Positions 639-60,238 of a DNA stretch of 64,000 bases are shown piece after piece (position 1 is the first letter of the stretch; each line of letters starts with the position of its first letter). Source of the stretch: a bacterium (lineage in GTDB: Bacteria; AUK180); contig JAGLWT010000037.1 of the NCBI GenBank assembly GCA_023133295.1, forward strand, positions 8,638 through 72,637, written 5' to 3'. A program made the position numbers and the translations under genes. Below the pieces are notes generated by a model. The model was not told the origin of the DNA. It saw nothing but the letters and a program-made list of their open reading frames with translations, and searched no databases.

Positions 639-924
639 AGTGAAATATTATACCGCTTAGAACAGATTTTATTTCATTCCGACTATCTGCGTATCCCTCC
701 AAACGGCTATATCTTTGTTCTCATCCAGTTTCTAAGGTGACAAATTGGCACCTTAATCTCTCTTTCATTGTATTCTGTCATCCTGAGCGGATGTGAAGGA
801 TCCATCTCTCTCCATCTTTTAACCTTCTGGGTAATTGTTCATTGCATTCTGTGCGCTTGTCACTTGTGCACTTGTCACTTGTGCTCTGCGTAGCGTGTTC
901 AAGGTTGAAAGCAAAGAAGATCCG

Positions 925-1048
925 ATACCTTATTCCTATTTTTTGTAATATTTCCAACCAAGTAATTTGCCGTTACAATCATACATTGCGGTACTTACGA
1001 CATACGAGTAGTAGATCATGTCAACAATGTCAACCACCGTCCCCATAT
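925..1048 (-). repeat. GGGGACGGTG-anchored module C (GTTGACA doublet plus extended -10-like TGnTAT), reverse copy
   Basis: The reverse complement aligns with copies at 50614, 52254, 54123, 54613 and 59706. Confidence 0.7.
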
Positions 1049-1060: not shown

Positions 1061-1091
1061 TTGTCCATTGTCAATTGTCCATTGTCAATTG
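1061..1091. repeat. Heptanucleotide tandem array (TTGTCCA/TTGTCAA)
   Basis: ttgtccattgtcaattgtccattgtcaattg. The same array recurs at 3419-3450, 49985-50015, 56135-56160, 59310-59335 and 62590-62635. Confidence 0.85.
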
Positions 1092-1173
1092 CGGTGAAGC
1101 CACCGTCCCCGATTTCCCCTTTTAAACCCATCAACCTCTTAGAAAGAGTATCTATTACTTTCTTCTCGATTTT

Positions 1174-3289: not shown

Positions 3290-3505
3290 ATTCTGTATCG
3301 GGCATTTCCATTCTTTTTCTAAATCATCCCTCGTATCGTTCTGCTGCTTTGCAAAAGTATTATCAAATAATTGGATTTTGAACCTTGGTCATTGGGCTAC
3401 TGGGTCCACTTACTAATAATTGTCCATTGTCAATTGTCCATTGTCAATTGCGGTGAAGCCACCGCCCCCATATCTGTTGTACTGAGGATATCCGCCCTAG
3501 GAATT

Positions 3506-5827: not shown

Positions 5828-6114
5828 TCCCCGCGAACCAAGTGTTCACGCTACATAAACTCTTCGTTCACATTCTATAAACTTTTTACTGTTTTGTCAA
5901 GTACTTTTCCATATAAGGTTAACAGATGTCTCTTAATCTCTAACATGATTTGTCTGGCCTTTTTTCTTCTTATTCATAATTATCCCCTTCTCTCTTTCCT
6001 TCTTCACTATCTTCATTCTCCTCTGCACTTGTCCCTTGTACCTTGTGCACTTGTCACTTGTGCTCTGCGAAGCGTCATTTTGCAACAAACGCAACAACCG
6101 ACCCCTGTTTTCCC

Positions 6115-6666: not shown

Positions 6667-7056
6667 ATAATTGGAGTTTGGACCTTGGAGACTGGAACAC
6701 TTGGCCCACTGGATTACTGCGTAGCATAACTTGTGCTCGTGTGCACTTGTCACTTGTGCTCTGCGAAGCATCATTTTGCAACAGATGCAACGACCGGCCC
6801 CGAGTTCTGCTTTTTGAACTTGTAAATAATCCTTACAAGTTGATTTTTCACTTAATTCCCCTCCCTGTCATGCAGAGCCACAGGCGTGGCATCCAGGTTT
6901 TCTTTTATTCTCTATTCAATATTTCTCAACCTGTGAACTTGGAACTTGCGAACATGGAACACTGCGTCTTAACTGTCAAACAGTCAAGCGACTGTTGTAC
7001 TGTGGAAATGCCTTCTCGGGGTTATCAATTTAGGTAAAAAGTAAAGATACGATACC

Positions 7057-7491: not shown

Positions 7492-7550
7492 GGCCTCTCC
7501 TATTCTTCCTTCAACTTGAGGTCACAATCTGTGATCTCATAAATCATGAT

Positions 7551-7655
7551 ATTTTACTACTTCGCAGATATATTTTCAAATTGAACTAATAACTCCGAGA
7601 ATTTCACCGGCATTTTGCAACTTGTGCAATTTATCCCGTAGTTACTTGTAAGCTT
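7551..7655 (-). promoter_or_regulatory. G+P promoter module (TTGAAA-17-TAAAAT preceded by a GTTGC-type doublet)
   Basis: -35 is at 7579-7574 and -10 at 7556-7551, 60 nt upstream of the start at 7491. Upstream sequence is AATTCTCGGAGTTATTAGTTCAATTTGAAAATAT, as in other copies. Confidence 0.55.
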
Positions 7656-7660
7656 ACCCT

Positions 7661-7696
7661 ATCTTCGTATCTTCGTATATACGAAGATACGAAGAT
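7661..7696. repeat. Perfect 36-bp palindrome
   Basis: atcttcgtatcttcgtat | atacgaagatacgaagat. The two 18-nt arms are exact reverse complements. Confidence 0.95.
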
Positions 7697-8100
7697 GCCA
7701 TTTTTCATTTACTCTACTGCCCTGGGGTGTTTATCTGCTTCACTAAGCACTGCTTTCATATGCTCTTGTATTGGCAGTTGTGGCATTTGCCGTAATTGTG
7801 ATGATTGCGCTTTATTGATCTTGGAGCGGAGGTTCGAGAGATTATTCCAAGATTTTGCACCTTTCGCAACGACCGTCCCCGAGTTTCCCCTCGTGAACGA
7901 CTGTCATCCAGAGGGAGTTGGCGACCGTGGGATCCAGTTGGTATCTGTTTCTTGTGCGTTCTTTCATTCTTCACTATTCACTGTTCACTGTTCATTTCTC
8001 AATTGTTCACTTACTACCGTTGTACTGTGGAAATGCAATCTCGGGATTCTCGATTTAGGTAAAAAGTAAAGATACGATACCCTATTCGGTACTTGTCACC

Positions 8101-10130: not shown

Positions 10131-10222
10131 TCTTGATTTAGAAAATATTTTCAAATTGAACTATTACTTCGAGAATTTCAGAGGCATTTTGCAACAAAAG
10201 CAACAACCGTTCCCGGATTTAC
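10131..10222 (-). promoter_or_regulatory. G+P module (degenerate -10) upstream of the AbiL-like operon
   Basis: ...cgagaatttcagaggcattttgcaacaaaagcaacaaccgttcccggattt. -35 TTGAAA is at 10154-10149. Confidence 0.4.
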
Positions 10223-10834
10223 ATGTGGCAGAAATAGCTCTTCTCATCAAGTCTTGCGCATCCTGATATATTGCATTATACAACAATCGTGCAACTCCTG
10301 CAACCACCGTCCCCATATTTTGCTCGAGAAAGAAGATGTGCTCGAGAAAGAAGATGTGAAAGAGACGAGATAGAAAAAGAGGAGATCCGAAAAACGAAGA
10401 TCAGAAATGCTCCAAGGAATATCTCTCCGGGATTTGCTGTGTGCTCCTGTGTTCATTCTTCACTTTACACTTCAGACTTCACACTTCACACTTGCTGAGC
10501 AAGCTCAGCATTGCTTGTGCTCTTGTGCTCTTGTGCACTGCGAAGCGTCATTTTGCAACAAATGCAACGACCTTCCACGAGTTACCTCAAGTCCGCATAA
10601 ACACACCAAAAAACAATCCTACCAATTGTATTGTAATCTGCATACACCCACCTACTACATATTTTACAGATTTTAGGATTGGATTGCAAATACAATGAAT
10701 ATTAATCGTATGAATAATCAACCACGGGTAGAACAGAGCTAAAAAGTCAACCTGGCACTCTATTCATGCTATTTCTCCGTAGCTGCTGCAGGTATAGGAA
10801 CTACCGACCACAAGTTTCAAATTTCTCCATAGAT

Positions 10835-13433: not shown

Positions 13434-13895
13434 AAACAGAGATAGCCAAATAGTTAATTAACTGTTTGACTGTATGTTAATGCCGCAAGTCAAATATTTA
13501 AATCGAAATCTTTCCCGATATCCCTCACAAGATTGTAATCCTGAATCCCCTCTTTGTCAAATTTTGCCAGGATTTTAGTTACTTGCAAAATGTCTACTTT
13601 GTCTACCACCGTCCTAAGGGTTCCACAAAATAGTTTAATTAAGAAACTGGAATTTGTCAAGTTTTGCCAGGAATTTGTACCAAATGCAACTACTGTCCCC
13701 GAGTTTTAGAAGTAAGGTGTAACTGTTATCCTTTGCCATTATAACTCCAAGTGATTTCTTTTATTTTTATGCTCCTCGCAGAATGAGACAAGATCTCGAG
13801 CATTTGCTTCACCCCTCTAAACCATTCTACTGCTTTGCAAATATATCTTCAACTAATGTGATTTTGGACCTGTACACGGGATTACTGCGTAGCGT

Positions 13896-13989
13896 TACTT
13901 GATTTGCAAAGTATTTTCAAATTAATCTAATAACTTTGAGAATTTCAGAGGCATTTTGCAACTTTCGCAACAACCGTCCCCGAGTTTCC
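13896..13989 (-). repeat. G+P module copy (degenerate -10)
   Basis: ttacttgatttgcaaagtattttcaaattaatctaataactttgagaatttcagaggcattttgcaactttcgcaacaaccgtccccgagttt. Confidence 0.7.
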
Positions 13990-14088
13990 TATTTACAAGT
14001 GAAAGAAGTGAAACACCGTCCCCTATTCCTTACTAGATTTTTGAAAATGATGAAAGAAATGGTAAAATTGTATTGAATTACATATTGA

Positions 14089-15093: not shown

Positions 15094-15202
15094 TCTAGAG
15101 AGAAATAACTCATCAAAAGTTTATTAAAGTTCAGAAAATTAGATCCCATTAGTAATAATCCAAATTTCTTCCAAAGAGGTGTTGGACTACCGTCCCCGAT
15201 TT

Positions 15203-16208: not shown

Positions 16209-16307
16209 ATTTTACTGGATTTGGTATATATTTTCAAATTTAACCAATAACTCAGAGAATTTCAGAGGCATCTTGCAACAATTGCAGCGACCGTCCCCGA
16301 TTCTCCC
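16209..16307 (-). promoter_or_regulatory. G+P promoter module (TTGAAA-17-TAAAAT), archetypal copy
   Basis: -35 is at 16237-16232 and -10 at 16214-16209, 20 nt upstream of the start at 16189. The gene strand reads GGGAGAATCGGGGACGGTCGCTGCAATTGTTGCAAGATGCCTCTGAAATTCTCTGAGTTATTGGTTAAATTTGAAAATAT... Confidence 0.6.
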
Positions 16308-20525: not shown

Positions 20526-20619
20526 TACTACTTTGCAAAAACATTTTCAAATTGACTTAATAACTTGGAGAATTTTAAAAGGCATTTTGCAACAAATGCA
20601 ACTACCGCCCCCAAGTTCC
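20526..20619 (-). repeat. G+P module copy (-10 TAGAAC)
   Basis: ctactactttgcaaaaacattttcaaattgacttaataacttggagaattttaaaaggcattttgcaacaaatgcaactaccgcccccaagtt. Confidence 0.7.
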
Positions 20620-22906: not shown

Positions 22907-23157
22907 ATGTTCGATAATAAATCAAGTAGTTGTTCTAATTTCCAACAACCGCTTTATTTAGTAAGTATTTGATAATCAAATCTATCGATTCTAAACGACT
23001 ACAGATATGTGGATTCTGGGATGATTGGAAGACTCAATCCGCTCTTCACCAAGTGAAAGAAGTGAAACACCGTCCCCCATCTCCAAAAAAAACTTGACAT
23101 TGGAAATAATAAAATGATAAAACGCTATATATGAAAAGGCATAAAATAGAAATAAGG

Positions 23158-23962: not shown

Positions 23963-24354
23963 TTCGAGATCAAGATATAAATGTGAATGATTTTTAACCT
24001 GATAAAATATCATGGAAATCCGGGGACGATTGTCCCATACCATGCAAGTAGCTACGGGATAAATTGCATTTGTTGCATTTTTAGTGTTCAAATCTCAAAT
24101 ACCTCCATTCTCAACCGTTTTATTATATCACACATTGAATTGAAATCAAATCCAATTTTCTTGGCTGATCGAAATGTTCTCTCCCCACACCTTATGCCCT
24201 ATGCATAGTTATTTATTGAAAGGAAACAATCAATTTTGAAACTTCTGCAACGTCCCAATTTTCCCCAAGTGACAGAAGTGAAACACCGTCCCAGATTTTC
24301 TCCCAGTCAAACAGTCAAACGACTGTCGTACTATGGAAATGCCCTTTCTGAATT

Positions 24355-29000: not shown

Positions 29001-29253
29001 AATAGCCCCCTAATCTTATTTATTGTAAGTATATCACTAAATACAAATAATCCTAAATATGAATTCCATAATATCACTGTCATCATTTTTTGCTCATCAG
29101 TGAAAGAAGTGAAACCCCGTCTTCCTGTGCATGCTATCACCTTCCCCTTGCTCCACTGGGTCCACTGGGTTACTGGGCTACTGCCGAAGGCTTCTTTTGC
29201 AACAAATTCAACAACCGTCCCCAAATTCCTGATACATTTTCTCATTATACTTC

Positions 29254-30806: not shown

Positions 30807-30905
30807 ATATTACTTGATTTAAGAAATATTTTCAAATTAAACTAAGAACTCTGAGAATTTCAGCGTCATTTTGCAACTTTCGCAATTACCGGCCCCGAAT
30901 TGGCT
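30807..30905 (-). promoter_or_regulatory. G+P promoter module (TTGAAA-17-TAATAT)
   Basis: -35 is at 30835-30830 and -10 at 30812-30807, 51 nt upstream of the start at 30756. Confidence 0.55.
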
Positions 30906-43725: not shown

Positions 43726-43795
43726 GCCTCTTCCACGAGTCGATTAATTTTGATCTGTGCTTGCGCTTTTTAGACATCTTTTCCCACCATGTGAA

Positions 43796-43824: not shown

Positions 43825-43870
43825 GAAATAATAATTGTATTAAGGGGACGGTGTTTCACTTCTTTCACTT

Positions 43871-44112
43871 TCAAAAAGAAGGAGTTTTAAAAAAGGCGTA
43901 GCGGAGTCCAATTGTTATCTGCTGATTTTTCCAGACCCAACTGTCAAATTTCAAAATATTTGAAACTCCATAATAATAGTTTCCCTCAATTTGGAATCGG
44001 TCCGTCAGGTCAAATATCAATCCTATTCTGACACCGAAATCAAAACAGTCAATATTCAGTTTATCAAATGTATTATCCCACCAGAGTATGTCGTCTTTAT
44101 AGCCCAAATATA
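43871..44112 (-). pseudogene. Outer-membrane beta-barrel gene, C-terminal remnant (duplicate of the 3' end of 46452-47156)
   Basis: ...DKLNIDCFDFGVRIGLIFDLTDRFQIEGNYYYGVSNILKFDSWVWKNQQITIGLRYAFFKTPSF is near-identical to the C-terminus of the intact paralogue. Homology stops about 44112, where a GGTGGTTGAAAGTGTTGAATA repeat module begins. Confidence 0.65.
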
Positions 44113-44440
44113 GGGTGGTTGAAAGTGTTGAATATAAACAGCACGAATTCACATGTAATTTAACTAATGTTCGAATTTCTTTCTGCGAGCCACCTCTAAT
44201 GCGACATGGGGACGGTCGTTGAATAAGATTGTTCGCAAGTTCACAGGTTCCAGGTTCGCAAGTTGAGAAGGAGGGGACACTATTCGCAGAGTCCTTATTC
44301 CAGTCCTTCTGGAATTTTCCTTTCTCCTCTTTCTCGTATCTCCTCTCTCCTTCGCCTGATATTTTGTCAACCAAAATAGGGACGGAGGTATATTTTGTTG
44401 CATTTTGAGTTTATTTTTAGTATATAGAACAATTACACCA

Positions 44441-45626
44441 TCATTCCCAAGAAGATTTCTTAGTGTTCCACTTCACCCCGATAGTTGATTTCGTTTTAAT
44501 CGAATTAATGAGAGGTTCAAGAAAAAGGACGATTTCCTGCATGACTTCCCTAAAAGTGATATCCCCGGCATTAATATGTGATTTTCTCAAAAACGCTCGC
44601 CACATCTCCTCCCTTTTCTTATCTGCAGAGAATTCCTCCTTGAATATCGGATGGTTTTCAGGTATTGCTGTTTGCCTATTCCCAAAAGTTGCTTTAATTG
44701 CCTTTTTAAGAATGCCGCTTGATAGAGCGCGGTTTTTGGAAATATAATAAACATCATAGAAATCCTTCATCCGGCTATTCGCAATAGATAATCTTACCAT
44801 TGCTTCGAATTTTTCGGAAATAACACTTTCCACAGAATACCCGCTCACCTGAAAAGCCCCTTCAAGCAGGACCGGGAATTCTGTTTTTACCGTGCGAGGT
44901 ATAACCACATCTCCGAATCCGATATCGACCTGCAATCTTTTGCGTGCATTTTCCAAATGCGCATCGATCTTTATACGAATTCATAGGTGTTCTGATTCAT
45001 AAATACGATGACAATGGAATGCTTAGATTTGAGGTAATTCCAACGAACAATGAGTGCAGCGTACCCTTTGTGGTCCGCAAGCGAAGAGAGAGGAAGAAAT
45101 TGACCAAAGATGAGATTCCCTTCGGGCTGAAGCTCTTTTTCTGTCTTCTGCGTTGCTCGTCTCTTACATACCGCTGCGGGTATGCAGCGCTCCTCGCGTC
45201 TTGAATACGTAGCAAAATAGCGTCAGCCATTGTTACAGTCTTTATGAATCAGATCACTAGATACTCCGCATCAGACATTAAATTCTCTACTGTAATAGAG
45301 GAAGAAATAAACTCAACTCCATCATTCACATGATAGTCAGCTATTTGCTGAAATATTTCTTTGATCCTACCGAGATCATTGGGTATTTTCTTTGCCAGAA
45401 AATCGATATCTTTAGTCGAACGGCTCCTTGGCATATTTAGACATATCAGGAAAAGACCTCCTTTCAGTATGAAATTATCAGAGTACTCCGAGTTGAAAAT
45501 ACGATAAAGAAGCCTTTCCTGAAAATAGCGCAAGAGAAGTGTGTCAAAGTCCACTGATAACGACAATGCGGTATTCATAAGTTTTGCTCTGACCGACGCC
45601 GCTTTATTCTTGATTTCTCTTTCCAT
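44441..45626 (-). pseudogene. AbiEii-type nucleotidyltransferase toxin (DUF1814), interrupted by MITE copy 2
   Basis: The N-half (45626-45259) and C-half (44985-44441) each align with the intact paralogue 49030-49944, for example IRIKIDAHLENARKRLQVDIGFGD versus IRVKLKAKLGNSIISTQLDIGFGD. About 273 bp of MITE lies between them. Confidence 0.8.
44986..45258 (-). mobile_element. MITE-like element, copy 2 (~273 bp)
   Basis: The minus strand aligns end-to-end with 337-608. The terminal inverted repeats are AGTGATCTGATTCATAAA / TTTATGAATCAGAACACC. Boundaries are good to about 5 bp. Confidence 0.75.
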
Positions 45627-45641
45627 ATATTATTCCCTCGT

Positions 45642-46253
45642 TCAAACTATTATTTCAAGCCACTTTCTGAGGAGAGATCCAATCCTACATATCTCAGCAC
45701 ATCTCATAAGCTCTTCCAGATCTCTATCCCTCGTTTTCAGATACGCAGTCAGCCCTTCTTTTGCCATATCGAGTCCCAGCTTATTCCGGTATCGGATACA
45801 GTCGCAAACTGTTTTCTCAGGAGAGTAAATACGGATCTTTTGCTTATTTATTAGAACCACATCAATACATTCTTCGAACTGATGCAGGGAGAATAGATAA
45901 AACTCGACAGGTGGGTATTTGATCATCGGTTTCCAAGACTCGCGATAGATCGCAACCGAGATCACTTCAGGAGTGTAAGTAGTCAGGTCATAATATGAGA
46001 GCGCAGAAAGAAGGCAAATAACACCTTCAGGCACCGCACGGGCGATATCTATAAAACTGCGATTAGATACAGCGGGAGAATCAGAAAGCCTGTAAAGGCC
46101 ATTTTTAACCTTAATTATAATTCCATCATCCAGCATTGAACGGATTTCCCTCTGATGCATTCCTTGAGCAAGTATATCATTTGTTATAGCATAACCATTA
46201 TTAGCTTTAAACAGTTTTATTATCTTTTTTCTCTTCTTATCCATTTCCTTCAC
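45642..46253 (-). CDS. AbiEi-type antitoxin/transcriptional regulator
   Basis: 203-aa ORF with NGYAITNDILAQGMHQREIRSMLDDGIIIKVKNGLYRL. It is collinear with 48437-49033. Confidence 0.8.
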   Translation of the reverse strand: MKEMDKKRKKIIKLFKANNGYAITNDILAQGMHQREIRSMLDDGIIIKVKNGLYRLSDSPAVSNRSFIDIARAVPEGVICLLSALSYYDLTTYTPEVISVAIYRESWKPMIKYPPVEFYLFSLHQFEECIDVVLINKQKIRIYSPEKTVCDCIRYRNKLGLDMAKEGLTAYLKTRDRDLEELMRCAEICRIGSLLRKWLEIIV

Positions 46254-46330
46254 CCTTTGGTTTTTATCCTCGGCACATTATAACATATGATGAGGAATTA
46301 ATCCACTCCTTTCTCAAAGAAGAGCTTGAT

Positions 46331-46359
46331 TTGAAAAACGAGCATAAATCAAGTAAAAT
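46331..46359 (+). promoter_or_regulatory. Orphan promoter plus leader fragment (TTGAAA-17-TAAAAT), duplicate of 61564-61592
   Basis: 46325-46415 aligns with 61558-61648, including the hairpin CCGGTTTC-gagt-GAAACCGG. Here it points into the 3' end of a minus-strand gene. Confidence 0.45.
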
Positions 46360-46451
46360 GATATGAGAGGCCGGTTTCGAGTGAAACCGGAGATAGATTT
46401 TGATTTGCCGGCAAAATGTATTATGGGGACGGTGTTTCACTCCTTTCACTT

Positions 46452-47156
46452 TTAAAAGGAAGGAGATGTAAAAAAGGTGTAGCGGAGTCCAATTGTTATC
46501 TGCTGATTTTTCCAGACCCAACTGTCAAATTTCAAAATATTTGAAACTCCATAATAATAGTTTCCCTCAATTTGGAATCGGTCCGTCAGGGCAAATATCA
46601 ATCCTATTCTGACACCGAAATCAAACCAGTCAATATTCAGTTTATCAGATTTATTATCCCACAAGACTTCATCTCCTGTATATAATAGATCCCTTGTGCC
46701 ACTAAATAATGCAAACGATGTCTGAAATCCTATATTTATCATAAGCCTTTTGAATTTTATGCCATAATATATTGGTAATCCGATGTATGAAATATGTCTC
46801 CACACCTCTGATGTATATATTATACCTGAGGGATCTCCGTTAGCTAAGGTCCCCTCAAATTCTGTCAGCTCAAGGCCTTCGATCTGTAGGAAAAGCAATT
46901 CCGCTCCAAAAACTGATCTGTCATTAATTTTTACACTATAATAGATGCCTGCATTACCCGATAATGTAAATTTGTCATCAGGGAAAGAACTGGAAATTTT
47001 ACTCATACCGGGATTGATTTTTACTCCGAAACTATGCTGCACAAAAGCTACAGGATAGGTGTTAAGAAGAACCATTAAGGTCAGTATGATTGCCAGTTGT
47101 TTCAATCTCATTTTAGATTCATTAATTCTTATCCGTGCTTTGGCTTCTTTAGACAT
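46452..47156 (-). CDS. Outer-membrane beta-barrel (porin-family-like) protein
   Basis: 234-aa ORF with a signal-like LAIILTLMVLLNTYPVAFV, alternating beta-strand pattern and a C-terminal aromatic residue (..FFTSPSF). Confidence 0.65.
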   Translation of the reverse strand: MSKEAKARIRINESKMRLKQLAIILTLMVLLNTYPVAFVQHSFGVKINPGMSKISSSFPDDKFTLSGNAGIYYSVKINDRSVFGAELLFLQIEGLELTEFEGTLANGDPSGIIYTSEVWRHISYIGLPIYYGIKFKRLMINIGFQTSFALFSGTRDLLYTGDEVLWDNKSDKLNIDWFDFGVRIGLIFALTDRFQIEGNYYYGVSNILKFDSWVWKNQQITIGLRYTFFTSPSF

Positions 47157-47558
47157 CTAATCCTCGACCTTTTTCACAAATATCGTAGATAGGCGGAGGG
47201 CGCCTATGACAAGAGGGATCGAGGCCAGCCAGGTTGATACAAAGAGATGGTATTCAGGATTGAAATTAGTACTGCCCAAGAGAACAAATATCGCAGCTGC
47301 GATAATAAGAAGACCCAAACACATCAGCAGCACCCAGAAGATCTTTGAAAATATATTTCTCTCATCCCGATTGGTCTTTACTAAACCTATGCATACTGCA
47401 ATAAATACAAAGGTTAATATTACATTATCAGAACCCTCGGGAATGACACCCAACTTATTAAGGATCACAATGATAGAAAACGGAACAATAGTATAGGCTA
47501 ATACAATAGCGATCCACATCTTTGATTTCCAGACCCACTTGACTTTTTCTTTAACCAT
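47157..47558 (-). CDS. Small 4-TM membrane protein, function unknown
   Basis: 133-aa ORF, directly abutting the downstream beta-barrel gene. Confidence 0.5.
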   Translation of the reverse strand: MVKEKVKWVWKSKMWIAIVLAYTIVPFSIIVILNKLGVIPEGSDNVILTFVFIAVCIGLVKTNRDERNIFSKIFWVLLMCLGLLIIAAAIFVLLGSTNFNPEYHLFVSTWLASIPLVIGALRLSTIFVKKVED

Positions 47559-47768
47559 AGCTTACTCCTGAATAGTCGTGGGAAGAGGTTACGCTTCGCA
47601 GTGGGCCCAGTGACCCAGTGGACCCAGTGGAACAGGGGGGAAGGGACAAGTGCAAGTGAATAGTGTATAGTGATGAGTGAAGAGATAAAGAAGAGGGTAG
47701 TTGAGAAAAGATACCGTGTAAACTCATCTCTAATTTCGCTTCTTTAATCATCTTTTCCAGCATGCGTT

Positions 47769-47797
47769 AGTATACAGTATTCAGGTGCGATTTGCAA
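47769..47797 (-). promoter_or_regulatory. Promoter module P3 (TTGCAA-17-TATACT) embedded in a 9-bp-stem hairpin
   Basis: -35 is at 47797-47792 and -10 at 47774-47769. ATTCAGGTG...CACCTGAAT flanks the -35. Copies lie at 51918-51946 and 59238-59266. Confidence 0.5.
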
Positions 47798-47809
47798 AGC
47801 AAACACCTG

Positions 47810-48215
47810 AATATAGAGGTTGGAGGCTGGAGGCCTATAGAGAAGTGAACAGTGAACAATGAATAGTGAACAATTACATATAGAGGTTGGAGGCTGGAGG
47901 TTAGAGGTTGGTGCAGAAGGGAAGAGTGAAGAGTGAAGAATGAAGAGTGAAGAATGAAGAATGAAGAAGTGAATAGTGAAGAGTGAACAATTACATATAG
48001 AGGTTGGAGGCTGGAGGTTGGAGGTTGGTGCAGAAGGGAAGAGTGAAGAGTGAAGAGTGAAGAATGAAGAGTGAAGAATGAAGAATGATGCTTCGCAGAG
48101 TTTGGAGGCTGGAGGTTGGAGGTTGGTGCAGAAGGGAATAATACGGACTGCTGCGCAGAGCCTATAGAGAAATGGAGAATGAAGAATGAATAATGGGTGA
48201 AGGTAGAGAAAGTAA
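47810..48215. repeat. Heptanucleotide arrays (GGAGGTT/GGAGGCT, GAAGAAT/GAAGAGT, GTGAACA/GTGAATA) organised as a ~117-bp higher-order tandem duplication
   Basis: Units start at 47876 and 47993 (acatatagaggttggaggctggagg...), with a partial third unit from 48101. Confidence 0.85.
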
Positions 48216-48436
48216 ATGGGGGATGGATCCTTCACATCCGTTCAGAGCCTGCCCTGAGCGTATCGAAGGGATGACACGCATGGAAAAGCAAACACACAGA
48301 TTCGCCTATATCGGTGAGTCATCTTCTAAATGCGGTAAAAGTGGGCAACCTCTTGATTTTATGCTGATTTAATGATAAAGTTTAGTACAAAACCTCGGCA
48401 TATATTCACAGTTGCCGAGAGTTTGTTGGAGTACAA

Positions 48437-49033
48437 ATGAGCAGAAAGGAAGATAAGGTTCTGAAAATAGTTGAAAAAGAAGGGATGATCACACCCAAGG
48501 AAATTGAAAAGAGAAATATTTCCCGGCAATACATTTATCAACTATATAGGAAAGGAAAACTGGAGAAAGTAAGTAGAGGGCTTTATAAACTTGCTAATAG
48601 CCTGTTTTCTCAGAATGAGATGCTTATAGCGGTAGCAAATAGCATCCCCGCTGCTACTATATGTCTTCTAACTGCTCTTAGATTTCATGATATGACCGTT
48701 CAGAATTCATATAGAATATGGATATCCATTCACCACAAGAGTCATTCTCCCAGGGCTAGTATTCCCCTAAAGATCATTAGGATGACAGGAAAATCACTGA
48801 CAGAAGGACGCGAAGAATATGTTATTGATAATACCAAGATATTTGTATATAATCCCGCTAAAACCGTTGCTGATTGTTTCAAATTTAGGAATAAGATCGG
48901 GATCGACGTAGCTCTTGAAGCCCTCCGAGAATTTATTGATCAGAAGAAGGGAACAATAGACGAGCTATGGAGATATGCGAAAATAGATCGTGTTCAGAAT
49001 ATTATTAGACCATACCTTGAGGTGCAGCTTTGA
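48437..49033 (+). CDS. AbiEi-type antitoxin
   Basis: 198-aa ORF with MITPKEIEKRNISRQYIYQLYRKGKLEKVSRGLYKL. It overlaps the toxin gene by 4 nt. Confidence 0.85.
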   Translation: MSRKEDKVLKIVEKEGMITPKEIEKRNISRQYIYQLYRKGKLEKVSRGLYKLANSLFSQNEMLIAVANSIPAATICLLTALRFHDMTVQNSYRIWISIHHKSHSPRASIPLKIIRMTGKSLTEGREEYVIDNTKIFVYNPAKTVADCFKFRNKIGIDVALEALREFIDQKKGTIDELWRYAKIDRVQNIIRPYLEVQL

Positions 49034-49944
49034 AGGATATGGATCTTATTCAATCTATTAAGCAACGCCTTCTGAATCTAGCAAGGAGCAACGGCGAAGA
49101 TTATAACCATGTATTGGTTCTTTATGGTATAGAGCGCTTTTTATATAGATTAAGCCTATCAAAATATGCCAATCTCTTCATTTTGAAAGGTGCGTTACTA
49201 CTGTATTGTTTAAAAGGAAACACACATCGAATGACTTCCGATATAGACCTATTATGCTCAAGGAAATTCAATTCTGAGGAATTGGAAAGTATTATCAAAG
49301 AAATTTGTAATGTTAATGGCCAGAGTGACGGATTAGTTTTTCAAACGGAAACTTTAAAAATCTCAGCAATAAAGAAAGAGGATGATTATGGTGGAATTCG
49401 AGTAAAATTAAAGGCCAAATTGGGTAATTCCATTATATCGACACAATTGGATATTGGTTTTGGAGATTATGTATTCCCCAAACCTCATGAGTGCAAATAC
49501 CCAACACTGCTTAATCTTTCTGCTCCGCAAATAATTGCCTATTCTCTTGAAACAAGCATAGCTGAAAAATTTCACGCAATGGTAAAAAATGGAATGTTTA
49601 ACAGCAGATTGAAAGACTTCTATGATATCTGGATAATGAGTAGTAATTATGATTTTCAAGGAAATCTATTACAAACCGCAATTGCGGGGACTTTTAAAAG
49701 GAGAAGGACTCAACTTCCATCTAATACCCCGGTCGCTCTGAGTGATGAATTCGCCCAAGACCAGAATAAAAATAAGCAGTGGAAAGGATTTTGTAATAGG
49801 ATCGGCGTGGAGAAGAATTTGTTACTTGAAGACATTATTGGAGAAATTAGTATATTTTTAATGCCTATTATTAAAGCTATCAAAGATAATTGTGATATCA
49901 ATAAGAAATGGTCCCACGATAAGAATAAGTGGATAGAAGAATGA
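49030..49944 (+). CDS. AbiEii-type nucleotidyltransferase toxin (DUF1814), intact
   Basis: 304-aa ORF with FILKGALLLY...TSDIDLL...QLDIGFGD...SIAEKFHAMV...RLKDFYDIW. Confidence 0.85.
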   Translation: MKDMDLIQSIKQRLLNLARSNGEDYNHVLVLYGIERFLYRLSLSKYANLFILKGALLLYCLKGNTHRMTSDIDLLCSRKFNSEELESIIKEICNVNGQSDGLVFQTETLKISAIKKEDDYGGIRVKLKAKLGNSIISTQLDIGFGDYVFPKPHECKYPTLLNLSAPQIIAYSLETSIAEKFHAMVKNGMFNSRLKDFYDIWIMSSNYDFQGNLLQTAIAGTFKRRRTQLPSNTPVALSDEFAQDQNKNKQWKGFCNRIGVEKNLLLEDIIGEISIFLMPIIKAIKDNCDINKKWSHDKNKWIEE

Positions 49945-50613
49945 AGAATGAATAGTGAAGAATGAATAGTGGCTAAATATAATTGACAATGGACAATTGA
50001 CAGTTGACAATTAAGGAATAGAAAACAGAGAGGATGGATTCCCGATCCCCGATGTAATCGGGGTTCCCAAGGTCACAAGCCCAATAACGGGAATGACTAA
50101 TGCGATGGATCCTTCGCCGAAAAGCTCAGGATGACAGGGAATCCGGAGGAATCCTCTTTCTCATGTCTCTTCTTTTTCTCATCTCCTCTTTCTCCTGTCT
50201 CTTCTCCTTCTCATCCCCTCTTTCTTCTTGTCCCCTCTTTCTCATTCCCCGCGATTGGCAACCAGACATGGGGACGGTGGTTGAAAGTGTTGAATAAAAG
50301 CAGCGTGTTTTTGCAAGTAATTCATGTATTGTTCGATTTTCTTTCTGCGAGCTGCCTCTAATGCGACATGGGGACGGTCGTTGAATAAGATTGTTCAAAG
50401 GTTCAAAAGTTCAAGGTTCAAAGTGGTGAAATAGGTGATCGGTAAAACGGGAAAGCACAAGAGGTAAATACCAGATGGATTCTTCGGTCGCTATCGCTCT
50501 TTCAGAATGACAAACAGCTAAACAAGTGGACCCAGTGGGACACGATTTGCAGAGTCCTTATTCCAGTCCTTCTGGAATTTTCCTTTCTCCCATTCCCCGC
50601 GATTGGCAACCAG

Positions 50614-50737
50614 ATATGGGGACGGTGGTTGACATTGTTGACATGATTCACCACTCGACAGCCGTAAGTATTGCTATAATAGACTGTAACGGCGATTCAC
50701 TCATTTAGAAATATTTCAAGAAAATGGGGCCAGAAGT
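50614..50737 (+). repeat. Module C copy
   Basis: atatggggacggtggttgacattgttgacatgattc...attgctataatagactgtaacggcgattcactcatttagaaatatttcaagaaaatggggccagaagt. Confidence 0.8.
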
Positions 50738-50978
50738 TAGGAATGATGCTGCGAAAAGACGCAGCGTTCAAAGTTCAAGGTTTAAAGGAGGGAAATAACG
50801 GATGGATCCTTCAATCACTAAGGCTCACTCAGGATGACACGATAGGATAGATGATAGGTTCCGAGGTGTGATATAAAGAGGTTATAGATTTCCGCTTTCG
50901 CGGGAATGACGAAATGTAATGAAGAATCGAGAAATGAAGGATGAAGAAAAGATAATGTACGAGAGAAAAGTGGTTATT

Positions 50979-51899
50979 TTAATCTACATTCTTGTTCAAT
51001 TTTTCTATTATTTCAAAAGAACTACTATCAAATTTAGAAAATGCAAACCATTTTTTACCTAAATCCTTTAGCGATGCTCCAAAATGATAAAGATTTTCTT
51101 GGTCAATAATCAAAAACCTATCGTGTGCTTTCTTAAATTCCCTTATTTTAATTGATGGATATTGGGTATTGTACTTTTTCAAATCAAGTTCAAGTTGTTT
51201 TGTAATTTTCTTTGTGTAAATAATTACTTGTACCTTCTTCTTTCTTTTTGTTAGTAAGGTTAAAACCGAATCATCAATATAGTTATCTACTAAAATAATG
51301 GTGTTTCTTGCTGAGCGAATTAAATCAGACACAAATTTGTAGGCATCAAATATCTGTCCATCAAAAAATATTCCCTGTTTTGGAAAGTTATCCTTATTTT
51401 CTAATGCTTTGAATATACTCTCAAATTTTTTATCATATTCAAGATGCTTGTGTTCGATCCTATCCAGTTTTTGGAACATTTCTGCATTTTTGATAATAAA
51501 TTTACGCATGGCTATAAATGCTTTTATTATTTGCACGCTCATTTTAACTGCGGTATCACTTTTCAAAACAGCAGAAAGCATTGCAACGCCTTGCTCTGTA
51601 AAAACATAGGGGAGCTTTCTTCTCCCTCCATGTTGCTTTGATGTCACAGTTTGTGATATCAAGTCAGAATTTATTGAAGTGCCATTTTGGAACCTCAAAT
51701 GCTCGAACTCGGCTTTTGTCAATTGAAACATAAAATCTTCTGGAAACCTATCGATATTCCTTTTGACTGCTTGATTCAATACTCTTGTTTCTACGCCATA
51801 CAACTCAGCTAGATCACTATCCAACATAATCTGTGAACCTCTGATAGTAAAAATTAAATTTTGTAATTCATCGGCTTTTTTAATTTGATCTTTATTCAT
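50979..51899 (-). CDS. ORF6N/KilA-N-type DNA-binding domain protein
   Basis: 306-aa ORF with IFTIRGSQIMLDSDLAELYGVETRVLNQAVKRNIDRFPEDFMFQLTKAEF. Confidence 0.75.
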   Translation of the reverse strand: MNKDQIKKADELQNLIFTIRGSQIMLDSDLAELYGVETRVLNQAVKRNIDRFPEDFMFQLTKAEFEHLRFQNGTSINSDLISQTVTSKQHGGRRKLPYVFTEQGVAMLSAVLKSDTAVKMSVQIIKAFIAMRKFIIKNAEMFQKLDRIEHKHLEYDKKFESIFKALENKDNFPKQGIFFDGQIFDAYKFVSDLIRSARNTIILVDNYIDDSVLTLLTKRKKKVQVIIYTKKITKQLELDLKKYNTQYPSIKIREFKKAHDRFLIIDQENLYHFGASLKDLGKKWFAFSKFDSSSFEIIEKLNKNVD

Positions 51900-51917
51900 C
51901 TAATCCCCACATGGGAA

Positions 51918-51946
51918 ATTATACAATATTCAGGTACAATTTGCAA
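51918..51946 (-). promoter_or_regulatory. Promoter module P3 (TTGCAA-17-TATAAT)
   Basis: -35 is at 51946-51941 and -10 at 51923-51918, 19 nt upstream of the ATG at 51899. Confidence 0.55.
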
Positions 51947-52253
51947 AGCAAACACCTGAATATAGAGGTTGGAGGTTGGTGCAGAAGGGAATAATACGGA
52001 CTGCTGCACAGGGCCACAAGAGCACAAGTGACAAGTGCACAAGTGTACAAGGTACAAGGCACAGGGGACAAGGCACAAGTGCAGAAGTAAGTGTGAAGCG
52101 TAAAGTGGGAACGCACAAGAGGTAAATACAAGATGGATCCTTCGCCGAAAAGCTCAGGATGACAGGGAATCCGGAGGGATTCTCTTTCTCATGTCTCTTC
52201 TCTTTCTCATCCCCTCTTTTCCCTCCTTCCCATTCCCTGCGATTGGCAACCAG

Positions 52254-52379
52254 ATATGGGGACGGTGGTTGGCATAGTTGGCATAATTCGTCTCTATATT
52301 CCCCTGTAAGTAATGTTATAATAGACTGTAACGCCGATTTCCTCATTTAGAAATATTTCAAAAATACGGGGCCAGAAGT
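52254..52379 (+). repeat. Module C copy
   Basis: atatggggacggtggttggcatagttggcataattcg...aatgttataatagactgtaacgccgatttcctcatttagaaatatttcaaaaatacggggccagaagt. Confidence 0.8.
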
Positions 52380-52408
52380 GTGAGGAAGGTAGTTGCATCC
52401 CGGGATAA

Positions 52409-53215
52409 CTACTTCTCTGACAACTCCCCGAACAGGTCCATTATCCACCCCCAAGTGAAATCGCTCATCTCCACGTCGGGAAGGATACGGGAATTCGACA
52501 TACTGCTGAGACAGAGATTGTTCCAGAGTTTTCGGACCTTCACCTTCTTTATAGAATATTTTCGAAATACGCTTGCTATGACACTAGCATGCTGACCAGC
52601 CGCCTTCTCAATAGTTGCATCAAAATCTGCTGCAGCCATCTCGATGTTGTCGAGAACCCTATTTTCGATGCCTCTTATGAGTATAGCAGGAGCAAATCCC
52701 TTTCCCGAATCAATGATAGTGGTAAGATCTGCTATGGCTTTCTCCTTTTCTCCTTTTCTTGAATATAGATGGGCTCTTCGGAACAATGCTTCCGTTTTAA
52801 ACTCATCGGCTTCACTTGCTTTTGTAAAATCCTGGATCGCTTTCTCTTTATCCTTCTTTCTCCAATGGCATTTGCCTCTGTACAAATAGAGTACAGCTTT
52901 ATCGGGGTCAAGCTCTATTGCTTTGTCAAGTTCTGCAATTGCTTTTTCATAATCTCTAAGTATCGTATAGCATATCCCCTGTATCATGTGTACTTCTGAA
53001 TTCTCCAAATCCATTTTGAGAAACTTGTCGCATATTCCGACCGCCTGCAAATACACGTTTATTTCCGCATTCTTTCGGGCGCTTTCCACTAATGTCTTCA
53101 AATTAGCATTTTCTGCGCCCAATGCATATGCAGGAAGCACCACAATTGTAAGCAGAACGAAAAGGATGAACCTAATAGTTGAACTGTGAAACGAATTACC
53201 ATTTTTCTTAAGCAT
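52409..53215 (-). CDS. Secreted TPR-repeat protein
   Basis: I chose the start at 53215 (MLKKNG...) because AGGAGG lies upstream. It has signal peptide FILFVLLTIVVLPAYALG and several TPR units (...AIAELDKAIELDPDKAVLYLYRGKCH...). Confidence 0.7.
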   Translation of the reverse strand: MLKKNGNSFHSSTIRFILFVLLTIVVLPAYALGAENANLKTLVESARKNAEINVYLQAVGICDKFLKMDLENSEVHMIQGICYTILRDYEKAIAELDKAIELDPDKAVLYLYRGKCHWRKKDKEKAIQDFTKASEADEFKTEALFRRAHLYSRKGEKEKAIADLTTIIDSGKGFAPAILIRGIENRVLDNIEMAAADFDATIEKAAGQHASVIASVFRKYSIKKVKVRKLWNNLCLSSMSNSRILPDVEMSDFTWGWIMDLFGELSEK

Positions 53216-54122
53216 AATCTCCTCCTGTGGTATTATAACACAACAATTGGATATTGTCAATCAGACATTCCGAGCTGAAAAGTTGAAACACGTCCTTAGA
53301 AAGAACTTCGAAATCCAATAGTAAATATTGGAGACGGAGGCCTATAGGGAAGTGAATAGTGAACAGTGAACAATGAATAATGAATAATGAGAGAACGCAC
53401 AAGAAACAGATACCAACTGGATCCTTCGGTCGCTACCGCTCCTTCAGAATGACAAAAAGCTAAACAAGTGGACCCAGTGGGACACGATTTGCAGAGTCCT
53501 TATTCCAGTCCTTCTGGAATTTTCCTTTCTCCTCTTTCTCGGATCTCCTCTCTCCTTCGCCTGATATTTTGTCAACCAAAATAGGGACGGAGGTATATTT
53601 TGTTGCATTTTGAGTTTATTTTTAGTATGAGAGTGGATTGATTCCCGATCAAGTCGGGAATGACCCCGCATCTTAGTAAAAGTGCGGGGTAAACTCCATA
53701 GGAGATGGAGCCTTCGCCGAAAAGCTCAGGATGACAGGGAATCCGGAGGGATCCTCTTTCTCTTGTCTCTTCTCTTTCTCATCCCCTCTTTCCCCTTCCC
53801 ATCGCCTGACAACCATAATGGGGACGGTGGTTGAAAAGTTGAATATTGCATGTTCAAAAGTTCAAAGTGGAGCGAGATGGATCCTTCGCGCTGCTCAGGA
53901 TGACAGAATACAGTGAAAAGTGAAAAGTGAAAAATGAAGGAGGGAAAAGATGGATTATCGGGTCCCCGAAAATATCCGGGATTTCCGCTTCGCTACAACA
54001 AGCCCGATAATGACGGATTCCGGGATCTGGATGTATTCTCTTTCTGGAGTATTTCTGATCTCCTTCTCTATTAGTCTCCTCTTTCTGGTATTTCCCGGCC
54101 CCTTCGGGCATATTGGAAGCAG

Positions 54123-54246
54123 ATATGGGGACGGTGGTTGGCATAGTTGGCATAATTTGCCTCTATATTTTCCTGTAAGTATTGTTATAATAGACCGTAA
54201 CGGCGATTCACTCGTTTCGAAATATTTCAAGAAAAATGGGACCAGC
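54123..54246 (+). repeat. Module C copy
   Basis: Aligns with 50614, 52254, 54613 and 59706. Confidence 0.8.
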
Positions 54247-54612
54247 AATGCTGAGCTTGCTCAGCAAGTCTGAAGTGTGAGGTGTGAAGTGTCAAGTAGG
54301 GAAAAAGACGGGATGAAATAAAAACTGGATCCCACGGTCGCAAACTCCCTCTGGATGACACTCTTCAATTGTTCATTGTTCATTTCTGAATTGTTGACTG
54401 AATTTATCAACCTTGAACACGCTGCGCAGTGGACCCAGGGACAAGTGGACCCAGTGGAACACGCTTCGCAGAGCACAAGTGACAAGTGCACACGAGCACA
54501 AGCAGCAAATCCCGGAGGGATATTCCTCTGGAGTATTTCTGATATCCTCTTCTCTCTGTTCCCTCTCCTTCTGGTATTTCTCTCTTTCTCATTCCCCGCG
54601 ATTGGCAACCAG

Positions 54613-54737
54613 ACATGGGGACGGTGGTTGGCATAGTTGACATGATTCGCCACTCGGTAGCCGTATGTATTGCGTTATACGATTAATTCGGAGATTCGCT
54701 CATTTAGAAATATTTCAAAAATACGGGGCCAGAAGTT
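54613..54737 (+). repeat. Module C copy (degenerate centre)
   Basis: acatggggacggtggttggcatagttgacatgattcgccactcgg...catttagaaatatttcaaaaatacggggccagaagt. Confidence 0.75.
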
Positions 54738-54963
54738 AGTAATGATGCTGCGAAAAAACGCAGCGTTCAAAAGTTCAAAGTTGAGTGAGATGGATGTTTC
54801 GCGTTGCTCAGGATGACAGAATACAGTTAATAATGGAAGAAATCCTGGATGCCACGCCTGTGGCTCTGCATGACAGGGATGGGAACTGATAGAAGATATG
54901 GAACAATGGGTAGTAAGTTGCCCAGTGAAACACGCTTCGCGGAGCATCGGCAATGCTGTGTTT

Positions 54964-55425: not shown

Positions 55426-55430
55426 ACTTC

Positions 55431-55730: not shown

Positions 55731-56167
55731 CTTTTTAACCTAACCCTCACATTATACTACTATTTGTCAATAATTCAAGAATTCTATTCGTCAAGGGAAC
55801 GGTGACTTCAACCAGTCAACAATTCAGAAATGAACAATGGACACGCGGCGCAGAGCACAAGCGACAAGTGCAGAAGTAAGTGTGAAGTGTCAAGTAGGGA
55901 AAAAGACGGGATGAAATAAAAACTGGATCCCACGGTCGCAAACTCCCTCTGGATGACACTCTTCAATTGTTCATTTCTGAATTGTTGACTGAATTTATCA
56001 ACCTTGAACACGCTTCGTAGAGCACAAGCGACAAGTGCACAAGGCACAAGTGTGTAAGGGAAAAGGAAACACATCCGTAACCGGAAAATTGTTTAGGATA
56101 AGAATATATTTGTATTCTATCTTTTATAATTGTCAACTGTCAATTGTCCATTGTCAATTCTATTCCA

Positions 56168-59705: not shown

Positions 59706-59831
59706 ATATGGGGACGGTGGTTGGCATAGTTGGCATAATCCGCCTCTATATTCCCCTGTAAGTATTGTTATGATAGACTGTAACGGCGATTTACTCATTT
59801 AGAATTATTTCAAGAAAATGGGGCCAGAAGT
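59706..59831 (+). repeat. Module C copy
   Basis: atatggggacggtggttggcatagttggcataatccg...attgttatgatagactgtaacggcgatttactcatttagaattatttcaagaaaatggggccagaagt. Confidence 0.8.
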
Positions 59832-60238
59832 GAGTAGTAAGTGCCCCAGTGAACCAGTGGACCCAGTTGAACAAAAGTAAGTGCGCCAGTGACCTAGTCT
59901 TCCAGGTTCGAAAGCCGGAGGGATTCTCTTTTCCACCTCCTTGCTCTTTCTCGGATCTCTCTTATTCCCATCTTCTCCCTCCCATATTTCCCCCTCCTTC
60001 GCCTGTTATTTATTCAACAAATATGGGGACGGTGGTTGAAAGTGTTGAATAAAAACAGCGTGTTTTCGGAAGTAATTCACGCATTGTTCGACTTTCTTTC
60101 TGCTGTCTGCTTCAAATATGACATGGGGACGGAGGTTGAATAAGATTGTTCAAAGGTTCAAGGTTCCAAGTTGAGAAACAGGGAGGAGATTTTCACCGTA
60201 CAACAGTCGTTTGACTGTTTGATTGAAAGGATGAAAGC

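Follow-up and report, generated by a model that had tools for sequence, protein, structure and literature searches.

The TIRYT genes, or 'TIRtrons', described by Di Nocera 2013 (PMC3733652) are flanked by terminal inverted repeats (TIRs) with the motif GGGG[AT][CG]A[CG] (GGGGWSAS), and these TIRs can form dispersed repeat families. TIRYT was equated by Quentin 2018 (PMC6006769) with TnpA-Y1 subclass 2.1, which carries Bac_DnaA_C, HTH_23 or HTH_28; the target of the DnaA-like C-terminal domain was left open in that study, since the GGGG motif is unlike a DnaA box. In the searched literature, the terms TIRYT and TIRtron occurred in these two papers only, and a search for the motif string studied here returned unrelated primer matches only. 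We analyzed a 64,000-nt stretch of a bacterial contig (JAGLWT010000037.1, positions 8,638 to 72,637; the window), in which a G-rich anchor, GGGGACGGWG (the head), recurs in intergenic DNA and is mostly followed by a short word repeated twice. The results indicate that head and doubled word very probably form the outer ~28 nt of the TIR of a TIRYT-type Y1/HUH transposase element, a relative of the RAYT elements that belongs to TnpA-Y1 subclass 2.1.

Exact GGGGACGGWG had 16 matches in the window compared with 0.03 expected from shuffles, and GGGGACGGTG with at most one mismatch had 28 compared with 0.73 expected. A preliminary description of this DNA, made from the letters alone, had counted about 30 anchors, and each position that it named was recovered. 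Placement was assessed with a deliberately generous gene list, which counted 74% of the window as coding; 21 of the 22 exact GGGGACGGT 9-mers were intergenic (P ~1e-13). The lone genic exact copy, at 44208, lies within a 167-aa open reading frame (ORF) with a TTG start (43871-44374) that looks like a remnant, in which the duplicated 3' end of an outer membrane protein (OMP) gene is fused to repeat modules. The one-mismatch match at 12894 lies within a real coding sequence; this number matches the chance expectation, and the match is probably due to chance. The earlier statement that no anchor was seen inside a credible gene held for the exact copies, apart from 44208 in its probable remnant, and the enrichment that it had proposed to check was found. 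Copy density in the repeat-bearing island was ~1 per 2 kb, with no copies in the gene-dense stretches at 30.9-43.8 kb (13 kb) and 60.2-69 kb. In total, ~30 solo ends representing five or more word subtypes were counted in the window, and the head itself is often duplicated in short tandem, e.g., GAAATTCGGGGACC-GAAATTCGGGGACGG.

The doubled word was in register after 16 of the 22 exact heads: two 9-nt words, identical at 6 or more of 9 positions, began at a fixed offset of +10 from the first G, compared with a null rate of 3.9%. The word classes were GTTGCAnnn, GTTGACAtt, GTTGGCAta, GTTGAAnnn, and TTTCACTTC. Heads without an in-register doublet were followed by heptamer arrays (1110, 3469, and 55795) or by GTTGAATAA-GATTGTTC variants, and the match at 29147 had no words downstream. 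The copy at 15170..15197 has no word doublet. The claim that otherwise different module families have the anchor in common was upheld, as a single conserved head runs through several families. We also observed that, in the 4 nt 5' of GGGG, heads of the GTTG(G/A)CA and GTTGAA types almost always follow (A/C)AT, and those of the GTTGCA type mostly follow (A/T)TC; these word-linked bases could be a target or cleavage-site preference.

When one genome per species was scanned for the pattern, most matches were chance singletons, and five low-GC metagenome-assembled genomes (MAGs; labelled 'bacterium', 'WOR-3', and 'Atribacteria') carried several copies of head plus word. In two of the five (L088 and L059), convergent copies ~0.9 kb apart surrounded an ORF of 281-285 aa. 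The enclosed ORF encodes a Y1/HUH IS200-like transposase (Pfam Y1_Tnp, E = 2e-16 to 6e-13), for which the best NCBIfam model was REP_Tyr_transpos (REP-associated tyrosine transposase). A homology search revealed a family of 276-293-aa proteins with a C-terminal helix-turn-helix (HTH), and the HUH and Tyr motifs were conserved in 24 members. The flanks of every close family member with a retrievable contig were read, and all share the head-and-word architecture: in ten related loci, the head GGGG(A/C)CG(G/C)T and two tandem words stand on both sides of the gene in convergent orientation, the left end 33-155 nt upstream of the ATG and the right end abutting the stop codon. The preliminary description had listed a recombination or transposition end among the possible roles and had proposed looking for a co-occurring recombinase family. 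Both proposals were supported, as the head and doubled word are the TIRs of Y1 transposase genes in these ten loci and a Y1/HUH tyrosine transposase sits between the convergent heads of motif-bearing genomes.

The ten gene-end pairs differ in their words. P0001 (L059) has the head GGGGACGGTC with words GTTGCATTT/GTTGCAAAA, and P0002 (two genes, L187) has GGGGACGGT(C/T) with the same pair, GTTGCATTT/GTTGCAAAA. The head GGGGACGGTG occurs with GTTGGCATA twice at P0005 (L188), with GTTGAAAAT/GTTGAAAAA at P0007 (L088), and with GTTGATTTT/GTTGAGTTT at P0021 (L196). The remaining pairs are AGGGACGGTG with GTTGACATT twice (P0013, L197), GGGGCCGGTG with CTTGAAAAA twice (P0017, L192/L193), GGGGACGGTT with GTTGAGTTT/GTTGACTTT (P0020, L198), GGGGACGCTG with TTTAAAAAA/GTTGCAAAA (P0022, L194), and, at the more distant P0025 (L195), GGAACCGGT with TGTATAGT twice. 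At several of the transposase loci, a TATAAT-like hexamer that is itself a few nt away from the start codon follows word 1 at a spacing of 17 nt, which gives the words their resemblance to -35 boxes. The TIRYT genes stand singly among housekeeping genes (L188 9846-11920, RNase HII/PTPS and alaS; L192, L194, and L196, with YajC; NifU and TusA; radical SAM and glycosyltransferase genes), and the L188 TIR pair also encloses a gene with a metallo-beta-lactamase fold.

An AlphaFold (AF2) model built from the family alignment was confident (pLDDT 87.5). The structure that it matched best was E. coli TnpA-REP bound to the REP hairpin (4ER8; TM 0.75 on the target), with the transposases of ISDra2 and IS608 next, and the C-terminal 80 residues of the model were helical. 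Among the 24 members, the C-terminal domain matched HTH_23 in 18, HTH_28 in 10, and Bac_DnaA_C in 3 (best E = 9.5e-7), and we assigned the family to subclass 2.1 because this is the domain set given for it by Quentin 2018. The tandem-word ends showed no significant single-strand hairpin (fold z = -1.3 to +0.9 for six ends). A profile scan of metagenomes missed the close family and returned distant relatives only (27-44% identity), of which 13 of 80 loci had GGGGACGGT(TC) heads in the correct orientation on both sides of the gene and 5 more had them on one side. In these loci, the head lies between complementary arms, e.g., GCAGGCAA-GGGGACGGTTCTG-TTGCCTGC, with significant folding (z = -3.2 and -4.4). 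The head is thus conserved over a broad clade, and what varies is the adjoining part, which some lineages have as a palindrome and the close family as two tandem words.

With regard to the organism itself, run SRR13892600 yields both window contigs and the Logan contig that encodes P0005, so that P0005 and the window are likely from one genome. The P0005 TIRs are ~125 nt each, and both align to a module of the window (head plus P region, G+P) with 75-76% identity; a solo copy on P0005's NCBI contig (L188) is 84% identical to the window copy at 52256. Because both TIRs align with this module, we regard the five right-half G+P copies and that at 915-1044 as solo long TIRs of the P0005 element. 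The P region could also be read as the transposase 5' untranslated region plus its first codons; this was rejected, as P is part of the ~125-nt TIR at both ends.

Compared with the described TIRtrons, the system is alike in its RAYT-like Y1/HUH enzyme with a C-terminal Bac_DnaA_C, HTH_23, or HTH_28 domain, in the position of the gene between non-REP TIRs that start with GGGG, and in the dispersal of TIR copies as a repeat family. It is unlike them in its head, GGGGACGG(T) instead of GGGGWSAS; in a TIR made of the head and two tandem 9-nt words, a design not described in the text of PMC3733652 or PMC6006769; in a density of ~1 copy per 2 kb, compared with 'moderately abundant' in the literature; and in copies that are mosaic with other modules, all solo, and under strict regional strand polarity. 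REP/REPIN systems (TnpA-REP, 4ER8) likewise tie short intergenic repeats to a usually single-copy Y1 transposase flanked by them in inverted orientation, and have the same catalytic-domain fold and a conserved short head beside a variable part. However, there is no GTAG head here: the head is GGGGACGGT, whose complement contains CGTC, and published CGTC REPs are palindromic and without an associated transposase (PMC3733652). The tandem-word ends also form no palindrome, the window has no REPIN doublets, and the protein is ~120 aa longer and carries the HTH. The IS200/IS605 elements IS608 and ISDra2 have a Y1/HUH transposase as well, but their ends are subterminal hairpins without inverted repeats and they are multi-copy with their own transposase, whereas the ends here are TIRs without a hairpin and nearly all copies lack a gene; the family scored 17-25 bits with NCBIfam transpos_IS200, against a cutoff of 55. 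The mosaic repeats of the BIME and BOX types are similarly modular, with nested short repeat types in intergenic DNA, but their module sequences are different, and here several module families have one conserved head in common. The head plus tandem-word design, the co-variation of word and recognition helix, and the strict regional polarity appear to be undescribed.

In the ten gene-end pairs, the word varies together with the second helix of the HTH. The word is GTTGCAAAA where the recognition helix is STVGRILK (P0001, P0002, and P0022), GTTG(G/A)CAT where it is SWVT(K/Q)(L/V)L, TTGAAAA where it is S(A/L)ISKILK, GTTGATTTT where it is SWVNKIV, and GTTGA(G/C)TTT where it is SIISRLL. The catalytic domain of P0022 is the most divergent of the close family from those of P0001/P0002 (43-45% identity), yet its HTH region resembles theirs more than any other does (49-56%), the recognition helix being identical and the word, GTTGCAAAA, the same. 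Because P0022 shares helix and word despite its divergent catalytic domain, these results suggest that the HTH may read the words. The idea of a protein-binding site with a variable 'address' doublet, raised in the preliminary description, agrees with words that differ by transposase lineage and co-vary with the recognition helix, while we infer the binding itself.

All copies lie on the minus strand from -5.3 kb, in the left flank, to 30896, and all lie on the plus strand from 43844 to 60125, i.e., about 16 minus copies and then 14 plus copies with one switch in 78 kb, in agreement with the strand switch between the halves that had been reported. As had also been noted, the genes are mostly on the minus strand in both halves, and a simple inversion therefore fails to explain the polarity. 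The left-half plus-strand genes have no plus-strand heads, and the right-half heads are antisense to their neighbour genes. Descent of one subtype also fails as an explanation, because each of four subtypes (G+P, heptamer, GTTGAA, and TTTCAC) changes from the minus strand in the left half to the plus strand in the right half. Head orientation is thus set by region, independent of gene strand and of subtype. The imperfect exception reported near 24030 is real (24022-24030, plus strand) but belongs to a different, hairpin-type element, GGGGACGATTGTCCC. At 24022-24091 (plus strand), this palindromic head variant is followed by ...AGCTACGGGATAAATTGCATTTGTTGCATTTT and is conserved in another MAG (L077 7306-7376); it may mark the terminus of another Y1 element, one of the hairpin type.

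The source is a 146-kb metagenome scaffold with a 100-N gap at ~28253 (within 28053-28412). The gap falls among the tandem 60-nt repeats of gene 27990-29000 and is closed up in the window, so that coordinates to its right are offset by 100 from the record. An independent Logan contig (L191) is identical to the window over 28322-43927 and includes the minus heads at 29222 and 30896 and the plus head at 43844. The switch is therefore not a scaffolding artefact, because one independent contig spans minus and plus heads. In IS200/IS605 elements, strand-specific insertion in the lagging-strand template leads to an orientation bias relative to replication (Quentin 2018, PMC6006769), and this fork-coupled behaviour offers the best current model of the polarity in the window; such transposition was not found demonstrated in the literature for RAYT or TIRYT elements. 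By analogy, a replication-coupled single-strand mechanism would be plausible, though weakly supported. The GC skew at third codon positions (GC3 skew) of minus-strand genes fell from 0.188 (left half, n = 21) to 0.086 (right half, n = 18; Mann-Whitney P = 0.028), a change in the expected direction without a change of sign. Among nine related loci, the orientation of solo heads agreed with the GC3-derived strand asymmetry in eight, one of which is L188, with a plus head among minus genes on a plus-skewed contig. Whole-window GC skew was set aside as evidence for an origin; the argument would be circular, since the intergenic skew itself stems from the G-rich repeats.

We tentatively propose, as a possibility that we hold to be less than even, that the tandem words are the target of the DnaA-domain-IV-like HTH of TIRYT, a lineage-specific address pairing each transposase with its own ends; that the GGGGACGGT head is the catalytic site; and that solos are single-oriented per replichore, recording replication direction and later inversions where GC skew is weak. 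In this scheme, the HTH would recognise the two words as a putative lineage-specific 'address', and word binding is predicted to place the HUH domain for a nick in the G-rich strand at the outside boundary of GGGG. Transfer of the strand to another head would then move or shuffle the DNA between heads, which may leave solo ends and mosaic modules in intergenic DNA. If the Y1 enzyme acts on one strand of single-stranded DNA at forks, copies would come to lie in one orientation relative to the fork, giving regional polarity.

Several observations weigh against the identification as TIRYT ends or against its extensions. No TIRYT gene was found in the window or in 14 kb of flank, and no gene was found for any of the four remaining word types. 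The link of TIRYT to this genome rests on the common sequencing run and on the 75-84% TIR similarity. Position 7 of the head GGGGACGG is G and not A as in the published GGGGWSAS; this is a one-base variant, and relatives with GGGGACAG exist among the metagenome loci (L118 and L123). In addition, the window copies are solo and head-to-tail, with no convergent or divergent head pair within the window, whereas the transposase ends are paired. For the address, the co-variation of helix and word comes from 10 gene-TIR pairs, which are in part phylogenetically related to one another. For the polarity, the right-half replication component based on GC3 is ~zero and not positive, and the window has no DnaA-box cluster (12 TTWTNCACA compared with 8.2 expected).

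The -35-like appearance of most words (TTGACA, TTGGCA, TTGCAA, and TTGAAA) raises the question of whether the motif is instead a host cis-regulatory site, namely a promoter module or a transcription factor operator for the defence and toxin-antitoxin genes of the island. The 17-nt spacing to a TATAAT-like hexamer just upstream of the ATG at transposase loci, the -10-like hexamer at the right spacing in the solos at 10314, 7880, and 20612, and the end of module D8 10-60 nt ahead of several start codons fit such a role. However, those three are the only ones of 32 solos with a -10-like hexamer 16-18 nt past the word, compared with a null rate of 12%, and a canonical TTGACT-N17-TATAAT lies separately beside gene 8697-9968, downstream of the repeats. 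Moreover, the plus-strand genes on the left lack plus heads, the antisense heads on the right in some cases abut stop codons or lie a few nt past them, and the same sequence stands in both orientations around transposase genes, so that a regulatory function is very unlikely. A sigma-54 promoter (TGGCA-N-TGGCA) was also rejected, as the GG/GC spacing is 2 nt too short. Further candidates that were tried and set aside are an RNA gene, which is unlikely given that the module flanks the transposase gene in either orientation (neither a tRNA scan nor Rfam at gathering thresholds gave a match in the window); a small ORF (ATGGGGACGGTG...), of which many copies lack an ATG and the frames end after 6-20 codons; and an integron attC, suggested by the one-directional, cassette-like left half, as there is no R''/L''-L'/R' palindrome and the motif is associated with a transposase.

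The polarity bears on two other readings. KOPS (FtsK) and Chi (RecBCD) function through density and presence within genes. A host-selected directional signal of this sort, as the preliminary description had suggested, would fit the G-rich sequence, the perfect regional strand polarity independent of gene strand, the minimum of cumulative GC skew near the switch, and the difference in minus-strand GC3 skew between left and right (0.188 vs 0.086, P = 0.028). It is nevertheless the least probable of the explanations weighed here: the exact copies are kept out of coding DNA (21 of 22 intergenic) and absent from the two gene-dense stretches, only 3 copies occur in 20 kb of housekeeping DNA of L188, two of them flanking the transposase, and the motif is part of longer, 28-130-nt modules that travel between genomes and form transposase TIRs. 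An architecture-type function is accordingly not supported. Alternatively, the copies could have stopped moving and be remnants of a domesticated system, retained with the single-copy TIRYT for a host function (organisation of the nucleoid, processing of mRNA 3' ends, or handling of replication forks), with a polarity that reflects this function and not an insertion bias. The single TIRYT genes among housekeeping genes (YajC, NifU/TusA, alaS, and RNase HII), seen in five lineages, show the pattern reported for domesticated RAYTs (Bertels 2017, PMC5581495), and many solos in related MAGs lie 2-80 nt past a co-oriented stop codon. We consider domestication improbable, though less so than the two preceding readings, since the gene is present twice, 3 kb apart, in one MAG (RS_10_39), an additional, truncated copy occurs in the Atribacteria-labelled MAG, and near-identical modules occupy non-orthologous sites of different genomes.

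These near-identical modules at non-orthologous sites also indicate recent movement of the TIRYT-type ends. A ~330-nt noncoding block at 7548-7888 starts exactly at a head and is ~95% identical to a locus of RS_10_39 (L080 5423-5766) with unrelated neighbour genes, and gene-less, MITE-like convergent pairs of 160-200 bp were found in two MAGs (L072 and L077). Within the block are a perfect palindrome, CATCTTCGTATCTTCGTATATACGAAGATACGAAGATAG, and another word anchor unlike the first, CTACGGGATAA-ATTGCACAA-GTTGCAAAA, and the block might encode a small RNA or represent a nested mobile module. A module with GATGGATCCTTCGCCGAAAAGCTCAGGATGACAGGGAATCCGGAGG and a polypyrimidine heptamer tract (50098-50196, 52126-52224, and 53698-53796) stands regularly upstream of plus-strand heads, which suggests that these modules and heads form composite units larger than the TIR. 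Tandem heptamer arrays fill intergenic DNA, often directly after a head, and we take them to resemble the STRR heptamer repeats of heterocystous cyanobacteria. They are of the AGTGAAN type (47655-48200, 53351-53395, and 59123-59579), the TTGACAA/TGGACAA type (1052-1090, 3411-3449, 49974-50012, 56121-56159, 59299-59337, and 62583-62635), and the CAAGTGC type (52018-52077, 56018-56062, and 62538-62582). A 100-nt module ending in ...CTCAATTTAGGTAAAAAGTAAAGATACGATACCCTAT has six copies in one orientation (6961-7060, 7986-8085, 24292-24391, 27839-27938, 35876-35975, and 3443-3542), and five of these follow the stop codon of a minus-strand gene at a distance of 0-52 nt; the module could function at gene 3' ends or belong to a further repeat family.

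The interval flagged in the preliminary description contains the two heads of the 153-nt module D10 on the plus strand. The first, at 50270..50297, is a solo head GGGGACGGTG with words GTTGAAAGT/GTTGAATAA; the second, at 50370..50397, lies 100 nt past it in direct orientation and has the head GGGGACGGTC, words GTTGAATAA/GATTGTTCA, and then a GTTCAAR array. Module D10 recurs at 60025..60052 (words GTTGAAAGT/GTTGAATAA) and at 60125..60152, the last plus-strand copy (head variant GGGGACGGAG, words GTTGAATAA/GATTGTTCA), and also includes the copy at 44208..44235 (head GGGGACGGTC, words GTTGAATAA/GATTGTTCG) in the probable gene remnant. The long (~125 nt) solo TIRs of the G+P type on the plus strand lie at 50618..50740 (family D9; head, GTTGACATT/GTTGACATG, and P region, matching both P0005 TIRs), 52258..52380 (GTTGGCATA twice; 84% identical to the solo copy at L188 3364-3488), 54127..54249 (GTTGGCATA twice), 54617..54740 (GTTGGCATA/GTTGACATG), and 59710..59832 (GTTGGCATA twice). 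The sole left-half G+P copy is on the minus strand at 915..1044 (GTTGACATT/GTTGACATG). Other plus-strand heads are those at 43844..43871, the first plus-strand copy (TTTCACTTC/TTTCACTTT, within the 269-nt duplication D12); 46425..46452 (TTTCACTCC/TTTCACTTT), which is antisense to a minus-strand OMP gene and abuts its stop codon (46452-46454); 53820..53847 (GTTGAAAAG/TTGAATATT, with an 8-nt register); and 55795..55822, where the head variant GGGAACGGTG is followed by ACTTCAACCA and a heptamer array, the subtype of the minus copy 5.3 kb left of the window.

On the minus strand, a head with GCTTCACCGC and a TTGACAA/TGGACAA heptamer array lies at 1083..1110, and the head variant GGGGGCGGTG at 3442..3469 has a heptamer array of the same subtype. 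Degenerate heads are found at 6078..6105 (GGGGTCGGTT, words GTTGCGTTT/GTTGCAAAA, D5), 6774..6801 (GGGGCCGGTC, words GTTGCATCT/GTTGCAAAA), and 13673..13700 (GGGGACAGTA, words GTTGCATTT/GGTACAAAT). The copy at 7548..7880 (head GGGGACGGTC, words GTTGCGAAA/GGTGCAAAA) opens the ~330-nt block. Module D8, for which 13954..13981 (head GGGGACGGTT, words GTTGCGAAA/GTTGCAAAA) is the reference copy, is also present at 10187..10214 (head variant GGGAACGGTT, words GTTGCTTTT/GTTGCAAAA), 16271..16298 (head GGGGACGGTC, words GCTGCAATT/GTTGCAAGA), and 30869..30896, the last minus-strand copy (head variant GGGGCCGGTA, words ATTGCGAAA/GTTGCAAAA). At 10287..10314, the head is followed by GTTGCAGGA/GTTGCACGA, word 1 standing 17 nt before TATAAT. 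Heads with the words TTTCACTTC/TTTCACTTG lie at 13996..14023 and 23050..23077, and the head variant TGGGACGGTG at 24266..24293 has TTTCACTTC/TGTCACTTG. The exact head GGGGACGGTA at 15170..15197, the one without a word doublet, stands 6 nt past a stop codon. The head variant GGGGGCGGTA at 20585..20612 has the words GTTGCATTT/GTTGCAAAA, and the head GGGGACGGTT at 29195..29222, also present on the independent contig L191, has GTTGAATTT/GTTGCAAAA.

The window has a GC content of ~36%, and its genes form a defence and toxin-antitoxin island with RloB/AAA_21 pairs, AbiEi/AbiEii, a type I restriction-modification system, a KAP NTPase, Fic, HEPN/MNT-like genes, and a QueC/deoxyribosyltransferase cluster. 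Translation relies on Shine-Dalgarno sites and transcription on canonical TTGACT-N17-TATAAT promoters, and the intergenic regions are long and packed with mosaic repeats. AlaRS from L188, a probably conspecific contig, has three relatives at 53-55% identity, each labelled 'bacterium', followed by ~43% across many phyla, with no phylum-named relative above 43%; as it has no relative above 55% identity, the host represents a deep, unclassified lineage. At 32588-35184 and 38185-43725, QueC, a fusion of PfkB kinase and nucleoside 2-deoxyribosyltransferase, and an Ogg-like glycosylase lie beside the complete type I restriction-modification system, and this neighbourhood may be a DNA-modification (7-deazaguanine-type) defence cluster. 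A 504-aa ORF on the minus strand (56168-57682) is made up, for nearly its whole length, of repeats with periods of 9 and 15 nt (42 overlapping members of a repeat family); its composition is strongly skewed, and it has no confident Pfam domain.

TIRYT/subclass 2.1 transposases are widespread yet scarcely covered in the searched literature. The recognition of these repeats accounts for most of the odd intergenic DNA of this deep-branching and uncultured lineage and guards against its annotation as promoters, small ORFs, or architecture motifs. The tracking of word and helix gives a concrete hypothesis for what the DnaA-like domain may bind, for which the ten gene-end pairs with different words are a natural test set. 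If the polarity is indeed linked to replication, the fork-coupled behaviour of IS200/IS605 would extend to RAYT-like elements, and the heads would provide a new marker of replichore structure.

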